DNA of 63,296 nucleotides, filler included, from Atractiella rhizophila (Eukaryota), in NCBI GenBank assembly GCA_021432655.1. It is 6 parts of 5 records of this genome, joined end to end, with 100 filler letters (N's around TTAATTAATTAA, not from the genome) between each part and the next. Parts side by side here need not be neighbours in the genome. Positions count along the whole stretch, not along the records: positions 56,932 to 63,296 come from MU271248.1; 5 more parts are not named here. One strand, written 5' to 3'. Every line of letters begins with the position of its first letter. Positions within the stretch are counted from its first letter, which is position 1. Positions 9,997-63,296 of the stretch are shown here, piece by piece. The notes under the pieces were generated by a model. The model ran no database searches. It was not told the origin of the DNA and was given only the letters and a program-made list of their open reading frames with translations. A program made the translations under genes and the position numbers.

Positions 9997-10096
9997 NNNN
10001 NNNNNNNNNNNNNNNNNNNNNNNNNNNNNNNNNNNNNNNNTTAATTAATTAANNNNNNNNNNNNNNNNNNNNNNNNNNNNNNNNNNNNNNNNNNNN
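9997..10096. other. Artificial contig spacer N44-TTAATTAATTAA-N44
   Basis: 12-mer with stops in all six frames flanked by 44 Ns; identical at five positions. Confidence 0.97.
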
Positions 10097-19118: not shown

Positions 19119-19218
19119 NNNNNNNNNNNNNNNNNNNNNNNNNNNNNNNNNNNNNNNNNNNNTTAATTAATTAANNNNNNNNNNNNNNNNNNNNNNNNNN
19201 NNNNNNNNNNNNNNNNNN
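19119..19218. other. Artificial contig spacer
   Basis: N44-TTAATTAATTAA-N44. Confidence 0.97.
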
Positions 19219-28664: not shown

Positions 28665-28764
28665 NNNNNNNNNNNNNNNNNNNNNNNNNNNNNNNNNNNN
28701 NNNNNNNNTTAATTAATTAANNNNNNNNNNNNNNNNNNNNNNNNNNNNNNNNNNNNNNNNNNNN
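28665..28764. other. Artificial contig spacer
   Basis: N44-TTAATTAATTAA-N44. Confidence 0.97.
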
Positions 28765-42278: not shown

Positions 42279-42378
42279 NNNNNNNNNNNNNNNNNNNNNN
42301 NNNNNNNNNNNNNNNNNNNNNNTTAATTAATTAANNNNNNNNNNNNNNNNNNNNNNNNNNNNNNNNNNNNNNNNNNNN
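42279..42378. other. Artificial contig spacer
   Basis: N44-TTAATTAATTAA-N44. Confidence 0.97.
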
Positions 42379-56831: not shown

Positions 56832-56931
56832 NNNNNNNNNNNNNNNNNNNNNNNNNNNNNNNNNNNNNNNNNNNNTTAATTAATTAANNNNNNNNNNNNN
56901 NNNNNNNNNNNNNNNNNNNNNNNNNNNNNNN
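56832..56931. other. Artificial contig spacer
   Basis: N44-TTAATTAATTAA-N44. Confidence 0.97.
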
Positions 56932-57543
56932 AAAGCACGCACATTCGACAAACCTCCTCTAGACTACCCAGAACTTCTATCCTTGCTTCTCTCGCGTCCC
57001 GTCTCACTGGCTCCTTCAGCTCGATGAACGGCACGACTGGCTTCGGATCGGGCACAGCCGGAGACGGTGGGAGATCGTCAAAGTCGTCCAACGGGGAGAG
57101 GTAAGACGAAGGTTGGGCTCCTGGGAGAGCCAGGACAAGGGGAGAGCGGGAGAACTTCTTGCCCGCCACTCTATTCCTTTATTACCGATTGCTTCCATTG
57201 CTGAAACGAGAAGATGAACGAACCGTTCTGGGTTTGCGAGTCCATTTTTCACATAGAACTAACGTTCGATCATCAATCGGACGCAATGATGGTATCAAGG
57301 AGCACAAACGTGTTGCAAGTGCTGCAACATCGATCAGTCAGCGTCAACACTTCCCCATGAAATCATAAAAAAGATACACACAGCGATAGACCCCAGTGCC
57401 ATTACAGAGCTTCGCTTAGCTGCGCTCTTGGAGAATGGCTTTGCAGAATTAGAGGCATAGTATCTATTGGCGGCTGAGGAAGTAGGGCGGGTTGGGGCAG
57501 TGGGGGATGGCGGGGACGAGGGGAAGAGATGGGAGTTGGACAT
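56932..57543 (-). CDS. Conserved fungal hypothetical protein, 5' part (3' in gap)
   Basis: KPFSKSAAKRSSVMALGSIA-HLQH motif that I recall from fungal hypothetical proteins; Pro-rich DLPPSP segment. Confidence 0.6.
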
Positions 57544-57737
57544 CTGTAAAGTGGAATGAAGTGAACTAAGTGTGCCTGTGCTGGGAATCTGTGCGAATAT
57601 GCTGGAAGCAGCCCATGGAAGATATCGCCGAAATCGGAGTAGAAAGAAGCAAGGCTTCTTATGAGTCATTATAGCCACATTCAAGTGCAACCTACTACTC
57701 ACCAAATTTCAGCAGCTCCTAGGCATAGTGCTTGAAT

Positions 57738-58723
57738 ATGGGTAGGGACACTGTGAAGCCATCACAATATAAAGGTTTGTCGCTTGAGTTGACGCGCAAC
57801 TTGAAGCTGACCATCACATATCACAGGCATGGTCTACGTTGACCAGAAGCCTAAATTCCTTCAGAACGCCGTCGCAGCATTACGTGGAAGCAGGAGAGAT
57901 TACGACGACGAAGAGGAGTATTATGAGGAAGACGACCAAAGCGGACGGGAGAGAGAGGAACGTCCCGAATTGTGCATCGTTTTCTCACTGCCTGATCTCA
58001 TTCTGAACTGACCGACCCCTCTGAAATGAAACGCAGCGAAGTGCTCGATCCCTCACGTCCCGCGATACCAACACGACCGGATGACGACCCGTATCGAGAT
58101 GAGGATGAAGAGGACCGTCGTCCACGGGGGAAGCGGAAAGCAGGCAGTGACGAGGAGGATGAGGATGAGATGCCGCAGATCGTGGTGTTGAAGGAGGGGA
58201 AGCATTTGACGAAGGAGGAGGTCATGGCTGAGAAATCTCAGGGTGCTCAAGGTACGTTTTACACTTACGTTTAGACAAGCACAAACAACCGTTTGATGAT
58301 GATGCAGAGGCTACTAAGAAAACCAAGTCCAAAGGATCGCTTAACTTTTCCTCTTCTTCGAAGAAGCATGTCGAAACCTCGGAACCGCTGTCGATGCTGC
58401 AAAAGAAGCGAAAGGCAATTGCTCTTCAAGGAGATGAGGAGGAGGAGGAGGAGGAAGAAGACTGGAAGGATTACACGAAGCGGAAACGGATGGAGGTCGG
58501 CTCGTCATTGAAATCGACGGCCAAAACAGCACCGGAATCCACCACGTCAGGCCCCAGCAAACCGGAAGAATCTTTACCTTTGCCACTGGAGAAGAAGGAA
58601 GAGAAGGCGGCTCCAGCGAAGAACAAGACTCCGACTGGCAGTGAAAAAGGGAAAGCGAAAACGACAAAGAAGAAACCGAAGAAGGGCGGATTGCTTTCTT
58701 TCGGTAATGATGACGACGTTTAA
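57738..58723 (+). CDS. Small charged protein, DUF4604-like
   Basis: YVDQKPKFLQ, DEMPQIVVLKEGKHLT and C-terminal KKPKKGGLLSFGNDDDV; three introns. Confidence 0.6.
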
Positions 58724-59056
58724 CATTCTCCTCTCTCACGATTTGTATCAACAACTTGCTCTGTAAACCACTCTGCGTGACTGTGCGACCTTTGCTGCTG
58801 TTGTGTTACTGATGCCGATGCCTCGGGCGGCAATGGCCGGTTGTGGAAGAAGAGAAAGTGCGAGAATGCGGCGGCCATTGCCGAGATAACTCCGACGGAA
58901 AGCCGCGAGTGAATGAAACACAGCGTCAGGGTGACGGCAAAAGCCGTAAAGCCAGATAAACAGGAACAATAAAAGGTCAAGGGTCCCCGACTTTTCAGCC
59001 ACAAAAGAACCATCAGGGTCTTCTCAGCTCAGCTGAACTCTCAAAAGCGCACCACC

Positions 59057-59527
59057 ATGTCCAACCCACCAATCGCCCTCAAGTACAACGAGAATACATA
59101 TCTCCATGTATCCTCCAATCGAAACTACCACCCCAGAGCATTCTCCGTCATTGCTGATTCCCCGGAGCCTCACGACCACGAAGACCCGCACCAAGATCAT
59201 CCATCTGCAGACATCCCTGATGACTCGAGCGTCACCGATTCTCCCAAGACCCTGAGCAGGGACCTCACCCGCTCGACACATTCCTCTACGTCCTCGAGTT
59301 CGTCGGCGCCGTCGGAGATTCTCACATACGTCGGACTCGTCGGGCAACTTGACAACGAACACCTCTATTGTCTCCCAAAGCCAACGAAGAACCCTCCGGA
59401 TGAGGAGACTCTGGATTGCAAGAAGTGGCTGGAGAGTATTCCCGGTGTCAAGAGGGTCGAGGTCATGATTCCTAGAAAGAGGCACAAGACGAGATTCGAG
59501 TGTCCTCCTGAAGATTGTCAGGGGTAA
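59057..59527 (+). CDS. Stand-alone kexin/furin prodomain-like protein (156 aa)
   Basis: Single-exon ORF; TYLHV ... YVGLVGQLDNEHLY ... LESIPGVKRVEVMIPRKRHK. Confidence 0.55.
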   Translation: MSNPPIALKYNENTYLHVSSNRNYHPRAFSVIADSPEPHDHEDPHQDHPSADIPDDSSVTDSPKTLSRDLTRSTHSSTSSSSSAPSEILTYVGLVGQLDNEHLYCLPKPTKNPPDEETLDCKKWLESIPGVKRVEVMIPRKRHKTRFECPPEDCQG

Positions 59528-60599
59528 CCAAGTTGATAGGTGCGTCCTCTTATCTTTATTCTTATCTATCATCGAATGGGGTTCTGACGAGGTTGTGGGG
59601 TTGGTTTTTAGGACGGTGTTTTTATCTGGGTCTTCGGTTTTTTCTGTCCATCTGCTTGTACTTGTATCTCTGCCTCATTTAGTCTCCTATCTTCTCGTTT
59701 CGAATTTTCTTCATGGGTGATATGATGGTCTCTTTACACGAATGCCAAAACGTTTGCTTATTGTCAGTGTCGTCCCATCATCCATGATGCAATCTAGCCA
59801 TAGATTCTTAGCCGTTACCTTATCTTGTACGTCACGGGTCGGGCCGCTTGTTTCTGCTCACTATCTTAACTCGACGACCTCCCTGAAATAATTTGCTCCT
59901 TGGGAGCAAGGAGAGGTCCGTATATGTTATCATGAAGGTAAGGAGACAAATCGTCAACACAAACAAGGCAAAGGACTCCGAAGCAAATGAAGAGAATGAA
60001 TTACATATATTTCATGCGTTTCTTAAGGTTTAAGTAGACGACAAGGTCTGAAGGATTACGGTAGTAGCATACACTATTGTAGATACGGGATCGCTAATCG
60101 CAAAGCAGTTTCAAAAATGCTAAAGAAAAGAACACAGAATCAAAATGGGAGGCACCAAATACGGTGCATAAGAAATATATCTTTGATCAACTTTCTGCAT
60201 TGAAAAGCGAAGAAAGATCGCATATTCAAACAAGGGAAGATGAGTAACACCTGGCTAAGAATTAGGCAGCAGAACGCAACGCAAGCAGAAGACGGTGTCA
60301 GCTTGATTATGATTAGGAGGTTGGTGTGGTCAAAGTACGATGAGGAAAAGCGACACGGATAAAATCGACAAACGGCACCGATCGTTGCTCTGGACAAGTT
60401 GTTGGTCGTGGTCGAATATGTTGCGAAAAAAAAACACGAAGATGGAAGTGTAATGGAGAAAGTCTGATTGTTGTTCGAATGAAGTGCCACTTCTTCTGGG
60501 ACTGACGGATCCAAACGAATCACAAATCTTATTTACGTTTTAAACAGAAGGGCGCTCAGGAAGCCGAAGTTGTAAGTACTCGAAACCATAGAGTGCCGT

Positions 60600-62274
60600 T
60601 CAAGTGCCTTTGGTGCGCGTCGAACGGTTCGTCTTCCTCTTCTTAAACATTGGTCCACCGCCTCCTTCGTCGTCCGCCCGACTAGCAGGTTTCTCTTCCT
60701 CTGACCTCACGTTCAGGTGCTGGTGAGATGCGCTAGGGCCCGGCTTCATTTGGGAGTTCAGTCTTGGGGAGTACAGAGCGAGATACGCTTGGAGACGAGC
60801 TGCTTTCAGGCACCGAAGGGTACCCAGAGTCAGAGGTGGGAGAACCGGCGGCATCCAAGTCTGGATCGTCCATATCATAATCGTTGGACTCGCCTGCCGA
60901 ATTGTCACGGAAGGAGGTGGAGACGCTCGCAGGAGTGGAGGCAGAAGCAGCGTCGAATGTGGAGGAGTCGGCCGTTTTCTTCGCTGTCTTTCGAATACGT
61001 TTCGGTTTCGGTTGGAAACGATAGTCTGTTGACAAAATCTCTCAATTAGTCTTTGCAGAATAAAGATTGAGACATACTTGGGAAAGCCTTGTTATGTTGA
61101 GCCTTTTCCACCTCCGCCTTACGCTCATATTCCTTTTTGACTTCCGGTGGCTCGTTCCTCCACATTTCTCCCAAAGCTTTGCTCAACTCGGCTTGTGGAG
61201 CTTGAGGTTTCAACTCCTTCAGCTTCTCGCTCCTATAGATGATCCATGCATTCCTCGGTCGCTTGATCTTTGGCTCTCCTTCGCTCGTCGTCGAAACCGT
61301 CCAAGAGTGACCTTCCGGTGGACCAACCTCGTCTGCGAACTGAGAATCGTTTGCGTACTGCTGATGAAGCTGATTCTGATAGACTGGTTGTCGTCCTGGA
61401 TAGTCTTGAGGTGGATGAGCGAAGTCTCTTTGAGTGAGAGGTGGTGTGTTAATGGGCGGAAGAGCTCGATGTGGGTCGACGACGTGCGTCATGGGATTGG
61501 TCCAGACAATGTTGTTCGGGGCATGATGAGAAGCAGGAAACGGGGACGGGCGACCACCGAGGCGAGCGGCGTCTCTTGTCCGAATTTGACCAGGATCGTA
61601 TATTTCTCCTTCTGGGTGTCCACGTTCCGTAAACATCGAAGAGTTCATAGGCATGTGCATGTCCTGACCGCTAGGATGGCTTCCAAACCATGCTGAAATC
61701 GACGGCAAGGATACCTTCGTGGACTGAGGTTGAACAGGCTCTTCTGAAGGCTTCGGAGGAGCAGCTGATGGGAGAACGGTCTGCCATTGGCCAATGACAC
61801 CCTCTTGGCCACCCGACGTAAAGCGTTCTCCGTCATCGTGGTATCCTAGCGAAGCGGCGGTCGAGTAGTTCGCATACGGGTCTCTTGAAGCGGCAGGTTT
61901 TGCTTTCGAAGTTCCTGCTGCAGGTGGTGGTGGAGCGTCTCCCGCAGCCTTGCGGAAACACGCCTGGTTACCCCTTCGCCCCCCAAAATGCCAGGAAAGC
62001 GTACCTGATTAATGGATGCAATAGCTCTCGCCTCATTAGCTTTCTCCCGCTCCCTATGTTCAGCCTCCTTATACTGTCTGTTCACGAAAGTCCTTTGCCT
62101 CTCTTTATGCTTGAGACCACTCTCGTGCTGCTGCCTCGACGGAGCATCGTCCCTGATGAACTGTTCGCAGAACTAGTGGGATTTTTCAGGGTAATTTCTC
62201 CAAGATCACGTAAGAAAGTGACAGTGACGCGCCTTGCACCAGTAATTGCCCTTTGAGACCCAATAATCCGTCAT
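60600..62274 (-). CDS. U1-type zinc-finger protein (WBP4/FBP21-like) with an embedded HMG box
   Basis: MTDYWVSKGNYWCK|FCEQFIRDDAPSRQQHESGLKH; DPYANYSTAASLGY; GQWQTV; HMG KIKRPRNAWIIYRS...FP(N)YRFQPK; tail PMFKKRK. Introns 62173-62232 (GC-AG), 61949-62004 and 61026-61077. Confidence 0.85.
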
Positions 62275-63074
62275 CTCAACAACTCAACATCCGTGCGCGC
62301 CCTTCAGAAAAGGACAAGGACAAAAAGTGATCAAGGCGCCCCGGCGTTTTTTATGTGCTCGACCGGAGCTGGAGACAAAAAGAAGCTCGGCCGAAAGGAA
62401 GGAGATCAAAAACATTGCAAGTCCTCATTATAACCTACATTCCTCAAATAATATCCAATCATCAGATATAGAACACCAGTGCATCCTTTCGAAATGAAAT
62501 AAAAGCGCCGTTTTCGAATCTCTCTATTCCAACTTGTCCCGATTTGCTAACTTCGACAAGAATTGCAACCATGATGTTGTGTAGTACTGAGCTGATTTTG
62601 TGAAGAGAGGTGGTATCTTCGACGAGTTTGTTAGCATCATTTTTGCTGATTTGAAAATTTGATGCGGCAAAGTATGGTGAAGATGGGCAAAAGAAAGGTG
62701 AGCCTACTATCATACGGCAACGCTCAAGTCTGTCGATATCACCGCGCTGTGTTCTTTTTACTGTCTCTTTTAGAGCTCAGCCAGTTGAATCTGACTGTTT
62801 GAACTAGAATCGCTCGAGCTTTGAGGCTGGCCGCCTGTGACAATACGGTCAAACTTGCTGATAGCCCAACCCATAAAGTCAACTCGTTTCGGAAGCATCT
62901 CGAACGATGACGTGAAATGTCGTCTCGCTCGCCGTTGACCACCTTGACCGGTTATAATTATTTGATAACGAGTCTAACGAATCTGATTGATCTATCTATT
63001 TCTTCAGAATTCAATATTCAACCACGAGCAGGTCAGAGCAGATTCAAGGCAGCTTCAGAGTATCTGTGCGCATT

Positions 63075-63296
63075 ATGACCAGCACCACGGTGAACTCCTC
63101 TCCCACAATCTTTCTCTTGAAGCCAGTGCTTCAACCGTTTCCATACGGGAAAGAAGGTGAAAAGTCGCTTGCCGCGCAGCTTGCCAAATCAGCTTTGGGT
63201 GAAGAGGTGTCCATTGATCCTAAGCAACGTACGCAGTTTCGTGTTCTTACCACGCATTATGTTGACGAGCATGGCCATTGAAGCATACGGTGAAAT
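63075..63296 (+). CDS. PMI40: Mannose-6-phosphate isomerase type I, 5' part (runs off window)
   Basis: IFLLKPVLQPFPYGKEGEKSLAAQLA...IDPKQ|PYGE matches the PMI N-terminal pattern (YxWGK...PYAELW). Confidence 0.7.

Follow-up and report, generated by a model that had tools for sequence, protein, structure and literature searches.

A WBP4/FBP21-type gene of the fungus Atractiella rhizophila with a predicted HMG box inserted in its C-terminal linker

The minus strand of the window, a 63,296-nt stretch of Atractiella rhizophila DNA, carries at 62274 to ~60600 a gene of the WBP4/FBP21 type with an HMG box. Because the window consists of several contigs joined end to end, with paired runs of N at 9997-10096, 19119-19218, 28665-28764, 42279-42378, and 56832-56931, the true genomic context of the gene is 56932-63296 only; these last 6.4 kb correspond to contig C69 of a 51-Mb genome in 1,998 contigs. 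Two further versions of the locus are present in the genome, on C75 (98% identical over 1,901 nt) and on C901, which ends inside exon 2. We also compared the locus with contigs from 4 of 23 public runs (X1, X3, X4, and X22). As originally predicted, the exons at 62274-62233, 62172-62005, and 61948-61078 join in one frame, with 360 codons plus one base and no stop, and the gene as a whole is laid out as follows.

62233..62274, minus strand: exon 1, with the start codon, the MTDYW N terminus, and the first zinc-finger Cys (X1 joint 62172/62233; matches human WBP4 1-108 by profile)
62173..62232, minus strand: intron 1, GC-AG, 60 nt (removed in X1; its ends read CT..GC on the plus strand)
62005..62172, minus strand: exon 2, with the remainder of the matrin/U1-type zinc finger and a long charged helix region (PF06220 match, motif places)
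61949..62004, minus strand: intron 2, GT-AG, 56 nt (spliced in X22 and X4; kept in one X1 contig)
61589..61948, minus strand: exon 3, WBP4-family part, with DPYANYSTAASLGY (61882-61841), GQWQTV (61792-61775), and GEIYDPG (61609-61589) (homologue profile, alignment)
61262..61588, minus strand: exon 3, P/Q/H-rich disordered linker (composition; pLDDT ~45-56; 4 of 4 variants in 61589-61270 synonymous)
61009..61261, minus strand: HMG box of the MATA/SOX class, RPRNAW...FP/NYRFQP, interrupted by intron 3 (PF00505, predicted fold)
61026..61077, minus strand: intron 3, GT-AG, 52 nt, phase 1, within FP/NYRFQP (spliced in X22 and X1)
60976..61008, minus strand: basic tail KPKRIRKTAKK after the HMG box (sequence)
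60744..60975, minus strand: exon 4, S/D-rich acidic disordered region (S 30%, D 15%; 6 of 9 variants in 61004-60744 synonymous)
60704..60743, minus strand: extra bases of the window copy, four in all (60743, 60720-60719, and 60704), missing from C75
60597..60703, minus strand: WBP4-family C-terminal tail, FKKRK (60647-60633), and stop (in frame in C75)

The basic tail is a possible nuclear localization signal or DNA-binding extension of the box, and the composition of the S/D-rich region of exon 4 appears activation-domain-like.

The original prediction had identified a U1/matrin zinc finger at the N terminus, and we recovered it with C13, C16, H30, and H36 in place; exon 2 alone, which lacks the part of the finger encoded by exon 1, scores 22.7 bits against zf-U1 (PF06220; Pfam cutoff, 22). 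Residues 1-193 score 122.9 bits against a profile of 119 fungal homologues, which then matches FKKRK at the end, so that the motifs of the C75 protein run in the order finger (13-36), YSTAASLG (98-105), GQWQ (123-126), GEIYDPG (184-190), and FKKRK (485-489); by sequence, the charged helix region after the finger aligns to profile positions 37-75. The best solved relative is human WBP4 (PDB 5o9z_Q; E = 2e-15 over residues 1-108), retrieved with a fungal-homologue profile that includes the N terminus of the Atractiella protein itself. By eye, the human protein shares the GxWQ motif, and FKKRK aligns as the counterpart of human FKKRR 356-360. Pfam searches matched no WW domain in the Atractiella protein, and these domains are absent too from 120 of the 120 fungal homologues listed; hence, on sequence grounds, it belongs with the fungal FBP21 proteins that have no WW domains. 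The middle motifs of the WBP4 scaffold are more diverged than in the Agaricomycete homologues, with the F-K-L-R-K stretch barely kept, which might mean that some spliceosome contacts are lost. The genome yielded no second WBP4-like gene; only the three versions of one locus match (3 and 6 candidates scored); this single-copy count is a lower bound, another zf-U1 place, C255, having been left out of the comparison.

The available structural account of FBP21 places its N terminus and finger in contact with U6 and with intron nucleotides +6 to +8 of the U6/5'-splice-site helix, and describes the helix after the finger as hindering Brr2 (PMC10943123). The disordered C terminus of FBP21 is likewise reported to bind Brr2, with the affinity coming from residues 356-360 (PMC5570060). 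The Atractiella protein resembles human WBP4/FBP21 in its N-terminal MxDYW, matrin-type C2H2 finger, helix, GxWQ motif, and C-terminal FKKR stretch, but lacks the WW domains and has an HMG box within the region that binds Brr2 in the human protein. Weak look-alikes in the Atlas (score 0.78) include zf-U1+OCRE plant clusters, and plant ZOP1 is a putative WBP4 orthologue. ZOP1 combines a zinc finger with OCRE and is a splicing factor with a chromatin link (PMC4085605); it is thus comparable to the Atractiella protein as a zinc-finger splicing factor with an added module, although the module in ZOP1 is OCRE and not a DNA-binding domain.

Profile searches retrieved 724 homologues among 8,000 scored candidates. 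The best 120 of these 724 are all zf-U1-only proteins of 307-393 aa without an HMG box, in keeping with the original description of fungal WBP4 homologues as ending in FKKRK and having no such box; the named ones among the 120 are Agaricomycetes. Like the basidiomycete WBP4-like zf-U1 proteins (such as P0001 and P0002), the Atractiella protein has, in order, the finger, YSTAASLG, GxW, GEIYDPG, and FKKRK; unlike them, it is 499 aa long and contains an HMG box. From metagenomes, 108 WBP4 relatives were found and 80 kept, and none of the 80 loci has an HMG box by the same profile that recovered all of the genome's own boxes (L001-L016). The tail is reached in 62 of the 80 (31 distinct at 90%), and the DDAPSR-to-tail distance is 820-1,140 nt in these loci versus 1,498 nt in C75. 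An intronless, divergent 315-aa WBP4-like gene without an HMG box lies outside the Agaricomycete pattern on one metagenomic contig (L096:42-986). The proviso in the original prediction that the architecture might already be common in orthologues thus found no example among the 120 listed of 724 or the 80 metagenomic loci, sets that are nearly all Agaricomycetes, with no identified Pucciniomycotina orthologue among them and with metagenome patterns likewise biased.

Searches from the HMG side agree with this picture: none of five WBP4 skeleton motifs occurs in the other 149 listed of 1,001 full-library matches. Atlas look-alikes of the N terminus are zf-U1 clusters from Ascomycota and Zoopagomycota with no HMG family shown, and an Atlas feature search with exon 3 gave HMG clusters only, all under 0.9. 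When exon 2 alone was used to look for longer zf-U1 proteins, two candidates were scored and none was found, an uninformative outcome. A combination of the two modules turned up neither in the databases searched nor in the open-access literature that the searches covered. Both modules are well known; what appears to be new is their combination, so far in one species. In the public annotation, the gene appears as two separate models, P0009 and P0159. The records, labelled Atractiella rhizophila (Pucciniomycotina, Atractiellomycetes), are identical or nearly so to the translation of the window: KAH8926200.1 and KAH8926450.1 represent an incomplete zinc-finger model of 154 aa whose introns are mis-spliced, and KAH8926449.1 is an HMG model of 289 aa that begins at an internal Met. 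They possibly derive from the same assembly and are not independent. Because the annotation splits the gene, the fusion is invisible in protein databases, and similar fusions in relatives may be missed.

The prediction of a complete MATA/SOX-type HMG box was confirmed, as the spliced box (public model P0159) matches PF00505 over the full profile (1-69 of 69) at 63.8 bits, with exon 3 alone already scoring 60.1 bits (Pfam cutoff, 25.4). AlphaFold predicts for P0159 three helices (136-147, 154-167, and 170-190) at pLDDT 90-98 and disorder elsewhere, and the first 20 Foldseek matches are SOX/SRY boxes (best SOX9, SOX18, SOX17, and SRY). Sequence-specific HMG boxes are diagnosed by an Asn before helix 1, a hydrophobic intercalating residue, a polar residue before helix 2, and a Y-x-Y/F-x-P tail. 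In an alignment to SOX9 and SRY, the RPRNAWII, PQAELSK, and YRFQP positions are kept, and, as the box has the fold and the residues of the sequence-specific class, it is likely to bind DNA. Boxes of this class are described as binding T/A-rich cores, and the basidiomycete factors named in the same source are Prf1, Rop1, HMG3, Mat2, and Pcc1; the Podospora MATA_HMG genes, as presented there, have no additional domain (PMC3730723). The Atractiella box is like fungal MATA_HMG factors such as SpSte11 and ROX1 in being a single box of the sequence-specific class, but differs from them in being embedded in a spliceosomal protein.

Tethered as it is to an RNA machine, the box might instead have been repurposed for structured RNA inside the spliceosome. 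There are precedents in that the HMG boxes of SOX2, SRY, and SOX6 are reported to bind RNA (PMC8198692) and that of Maelstrom is described as binding structured RNA and not dsDNA (PMC4373776). The alignment argues against such a shift, since the residues and the C-terminal tail of DNA-binding MATA/SOX boxes are kept, and so do the transcription-factor-like flanks and the identity of up to 64% to stand-alone fungal HMG factors. We accordingly consider RNA binding in place of DNA binding unlikely, and retain a DNA-binding box as the preferred reading.

The limits of the insert differ from those first proposed. GQWQTV had been thought to lead straight into the HMG box, but ~170 residues lie between them, including the WBP4-family motif GEIYDPG. 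As the WBP4 skeleton runs on past 61715 to this motif, the insert begins downstream of 61715; the insertion point probably lies after GEIYDPG, at about 61500 or later, with an uncertain left edge near IVWT (61510-61499). The GEIYDPG-to-FKKRK interval is 301 aa in Atractiella; among 120 homologues, the 107 in which both motifs could be located have 99-170 aa there (median, 135), which suggests an insert of ~130-200 aa. It is P/Q/H rich before the box and S/D rich after it, whereas the homologue linkers are richer in E/K. Thus, of the proposal that an HMG gene was inserted into a splicing-factor gene, the spliced chimera under selection (see below) stands, but the insertion site moves away from 61715 to a point after GEIYDPG.

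By eye, the position and phase of intron 3 are the same in two stand-alone HMG genes of the genome (L010 and L013). This shared intron suggests that the insert arrived as genomic DNA and makes a retrocopy unlikely. Inspection for a target-site duplication or transposon ends flanking the insert found only short two-copy repeats of chance size. The nearest boxes are those of the stand-alone fungal proteins noted above, and the closest paralogue in the genome is 44% identical; a quick tree of 133 HMG boxes over 67 columns left 76 of 129 forks open, with no named regulator in the set, so that no paralogue could be singled out as the donor. These identities, together with the lack of resolution in the tree, suggest an old event with no identifiable donor.

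The state of the 3' end depends on the version that is read. C75, which is collinear with the window, has a single open 499-aa frame that takes in the zinc finger, the HMG box, and FKKRK. By the window's own letters, the protein ends at 60733 (457 aa), with a stop codon at 60735-60733, and the FKKRK tail, which had been predicted to follow the HMG part and is present there, is in frame in C75 but out of frame in the window. Relative to C75, the window has the four extra bases within 40 nt, plus seven indel bases at 60585-60540. Two X22 contigs (60672-60803) and an X4 contig (60687-60889) each show four gaps against the window; in X22, the deletions at 60703/4 and 60718/9 make up 160/160 of the depth. 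None of the run contigs listed over 60473-60701 matches the window's indel pattern. Since the neighboring DUF4604 gene is itself frameshifted by 1 nt in C75, such indels appear to be scattered through the assembly. The window frameshift is probably a consensus error, as judged from contigs, which can drop an allele so that a real truncated allele could escape this check. The join suspected at ~61715 showed no sign of misassembly: C75 is collinear across this point and contigs of X22 and X1 bridge it, which rules it out.

The gene appears to be transcribed as a fusion. Each of the four joints listed for the run contigs falls on one of the three introns: X1 shows splicing of introns 1 and 3, X22 of introns 2 and 3, and X4 of intron 2. 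These spliced joints indicate that X22, of unknown kind, and X1, whose kind was guessed, contain RNA. Contigs cover 61598-62172 (X1, with the exon 1 joint and intron 2 kept), 61107-61798 (X22), 61458-61699 (X4), 61448-61598 (X3), 61328-61502 (X1), 61078-61301 (X1, with the intron 3 joint), and 60687-60889 (X4). By their overlaps, they link the zinc finger, the linker, and the HMG box, so that the predicted transcript joining finger and box is supported, with all three introns spliced. This evidence consists of assembled contigs, none spanning the whole gene, in which start sites and isoform levels are invisible and rare forms drop out; contig depth was not taken as expression, and the holes in cover (X22 61799-61820 and X1 60709-60882) are uninformative. 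X22, whose library type is off record, is possibly the source of the genome itself, while X1 and X4 come from other studies and have variants of their own. In the X1 contig that keeps intron 2 (61949-62004), intron 1 has been removed; this might be RNA caught partway through processing or a regulated retention event in the gene of a splicing factor.

Variation between the copies shows purifying selection on the fused protein. The 10 coding substitutions that separate C69 from C75 and 20 variants listed for the runs were combined into 27 distinct places, 15 further rows of the run-variant table lying outside this set. In the fusion frame, 23 of the 27 are synonymous (8/9 in the host part and 15/18 in the insert), and the five variants around the HMG box are all synonymous. 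For the insert, 24-29% would be expected to be synonymous, giving a nominal P of at most 3e-6, a value that is optimistic because the variants are linked on few haplotypes, although the direction is clear. Upstream of the error cluster, the coding sequence has a single indel, a 3-nt deletion that keeps the frame, and the 52-nt HMG intron differs at nine places between haplotypes.

These data bear on two readings that would dissolve the fusion. One holds that the locus makes two products, the HMG factor arising from an internal promoter and ATG in exon 3 or as a nested gene in a 995-nt intron (61714-60720). The public annotation does have two models, there are three Met codons in MHMPMN, and, as the window reads, a GT (61714) paired with an AG (60720) would yield an in-frame 187-aa HMG-free protein with the tail. 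Yet the 289-aa model begins upstream of GEIYDPG, inside the WBP4 skeleton, and the 61714-60720 skip would remove GEIYDPG, lacks a CTRAY branch site, and would be 17-19 times longer than the other introns of the gene. No joint skipping the HMG part is among the four listed in the run contigs, which drop rare forms; the AG at 60720 exists only by virtue of the window's extra bases; and the frame is open and synonymous biased across both edges. A nested gene in this intron is thus unlikely, and two separate products as a whole seem quite improbable. The second reading, an assembly artefact or decaying pseudogene, could invoke the indel cluster and premature stop of the window copy and the indels in other genes of the assembly, but C75 has the same arrangement, as do contigs of runs that carry variants of their own, the frame is synonymous biased, and its RNA is spliced; we regard this possibility as very remote. 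With the reading frame, splicing, several haplotypes, purifying selection, and intact motifs all observed, the fusion as a structure is highly probable.

We favor, with somewhat better than even confidence, the reading that this is one gene encoding one polypeptide of ~499 aa, in which both modules would be active on the same chain. A piece of an HMG transcription factor gene (~130-200 aa), comprising the P/Q/H-rich linker, the HMG box with its intron, the basic tail, and the acidic region, would have entered the disordered C-terminal linker at the DNA level long ago and been kept by selection. The FBP21 elements described above as contacting U6 and Brr2 are all kept in the only copy found, which makes a splicing role likely. 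By family precedent, the N terminus and zinc finger would dock on the U6/5'-splice-site helix of the B complex and the FKKRK tail would bind Brr2, while the HMG box is predicted to bind and bend an A/T-rich DNA site. The protein would then be a general FBP21 and a sequence-specific DNA binder, expressed from the promoter of the splicing gene. If spliceosomes are tethered to HMG target genes, this would be a consequence of the covalent link and not necessarily the reason why the fusion was kept.

A stronger version of this two-module reading, overlapping with it in the confidence we assign, is that coupling is what the fusion was kept for: the HMG box would park FBP21 on chosen genes, the introns of which would be spliced or held back cotranscriptionally in a gene-specific manner. 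The two modules sit intact on the same chain, each under selection, and FBP21 is reported to act at a regulatory step by restraining Brr2 (PMC5570060). As a precedent, animal SOX/SRY HMG proteins are described as taking part in splicing, with SOX9 probably bringing splicing factors to the chromatin that it binds (PMC8198692). For SOX9, SRY, and SOX6, the tie of the HMG box to pre-mRNA splicing is by protein contact or RNA binding (PMC8198692), whereas in Atractiella it is covalent and to a core B-complex factor. Independent modules would equally show selection on both, and all other fungal orthologues examined lack the HMG box. We consider it less likely than not that this B-complex factor is recruited through its HMG box to chosen genes, where it would time spliceosome activation on nascent RNA through the restraint of Brr2. 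If true, transcription and splicing would be coupled covalently, in a natural protein, for particular genes. Direct steering of splicing by DNA-bound transcription factors has so far been argued mostly from indirect SOX data, and a single fungal polypeptide with both activities would make the question cleanly testable. The insert also shows that the C-terminal linker of FBP21 tolerates a folded domain between conserved motifs.

Several observations concern the surroundings of the gene. The upstream neighbor is a type I phosphomannose isomerase gene (63296 to ~63060, minus strand; L004:4149-5106), with a PMI_typeI_cat match of 57.2 bits on the C75 allele. In the upstream region, C69, C75, and C901 differ pairwise at 27-43 places in ~1,220 nt, and three X22 contigs of similar depth (58, 62, and 71) lie over the 3' end of the gene (60490-60645); together, these possibly represent three haplotypes, of a triploid or a heterokaryon. 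A 776-nt X22 contig of depth 634 at 60100-60519, beyond the stop of the gene and extending further, may be a long 3' untranslated region or another transcript. On the plus strand, the DUF4604 gene (57996-58723) is open in the window, the C75 copy being shifted by one extra base at 58526, and an open reading frame at 58973-59527 (184 codons from stop to stop), without a Pfam match, is identical in C75.
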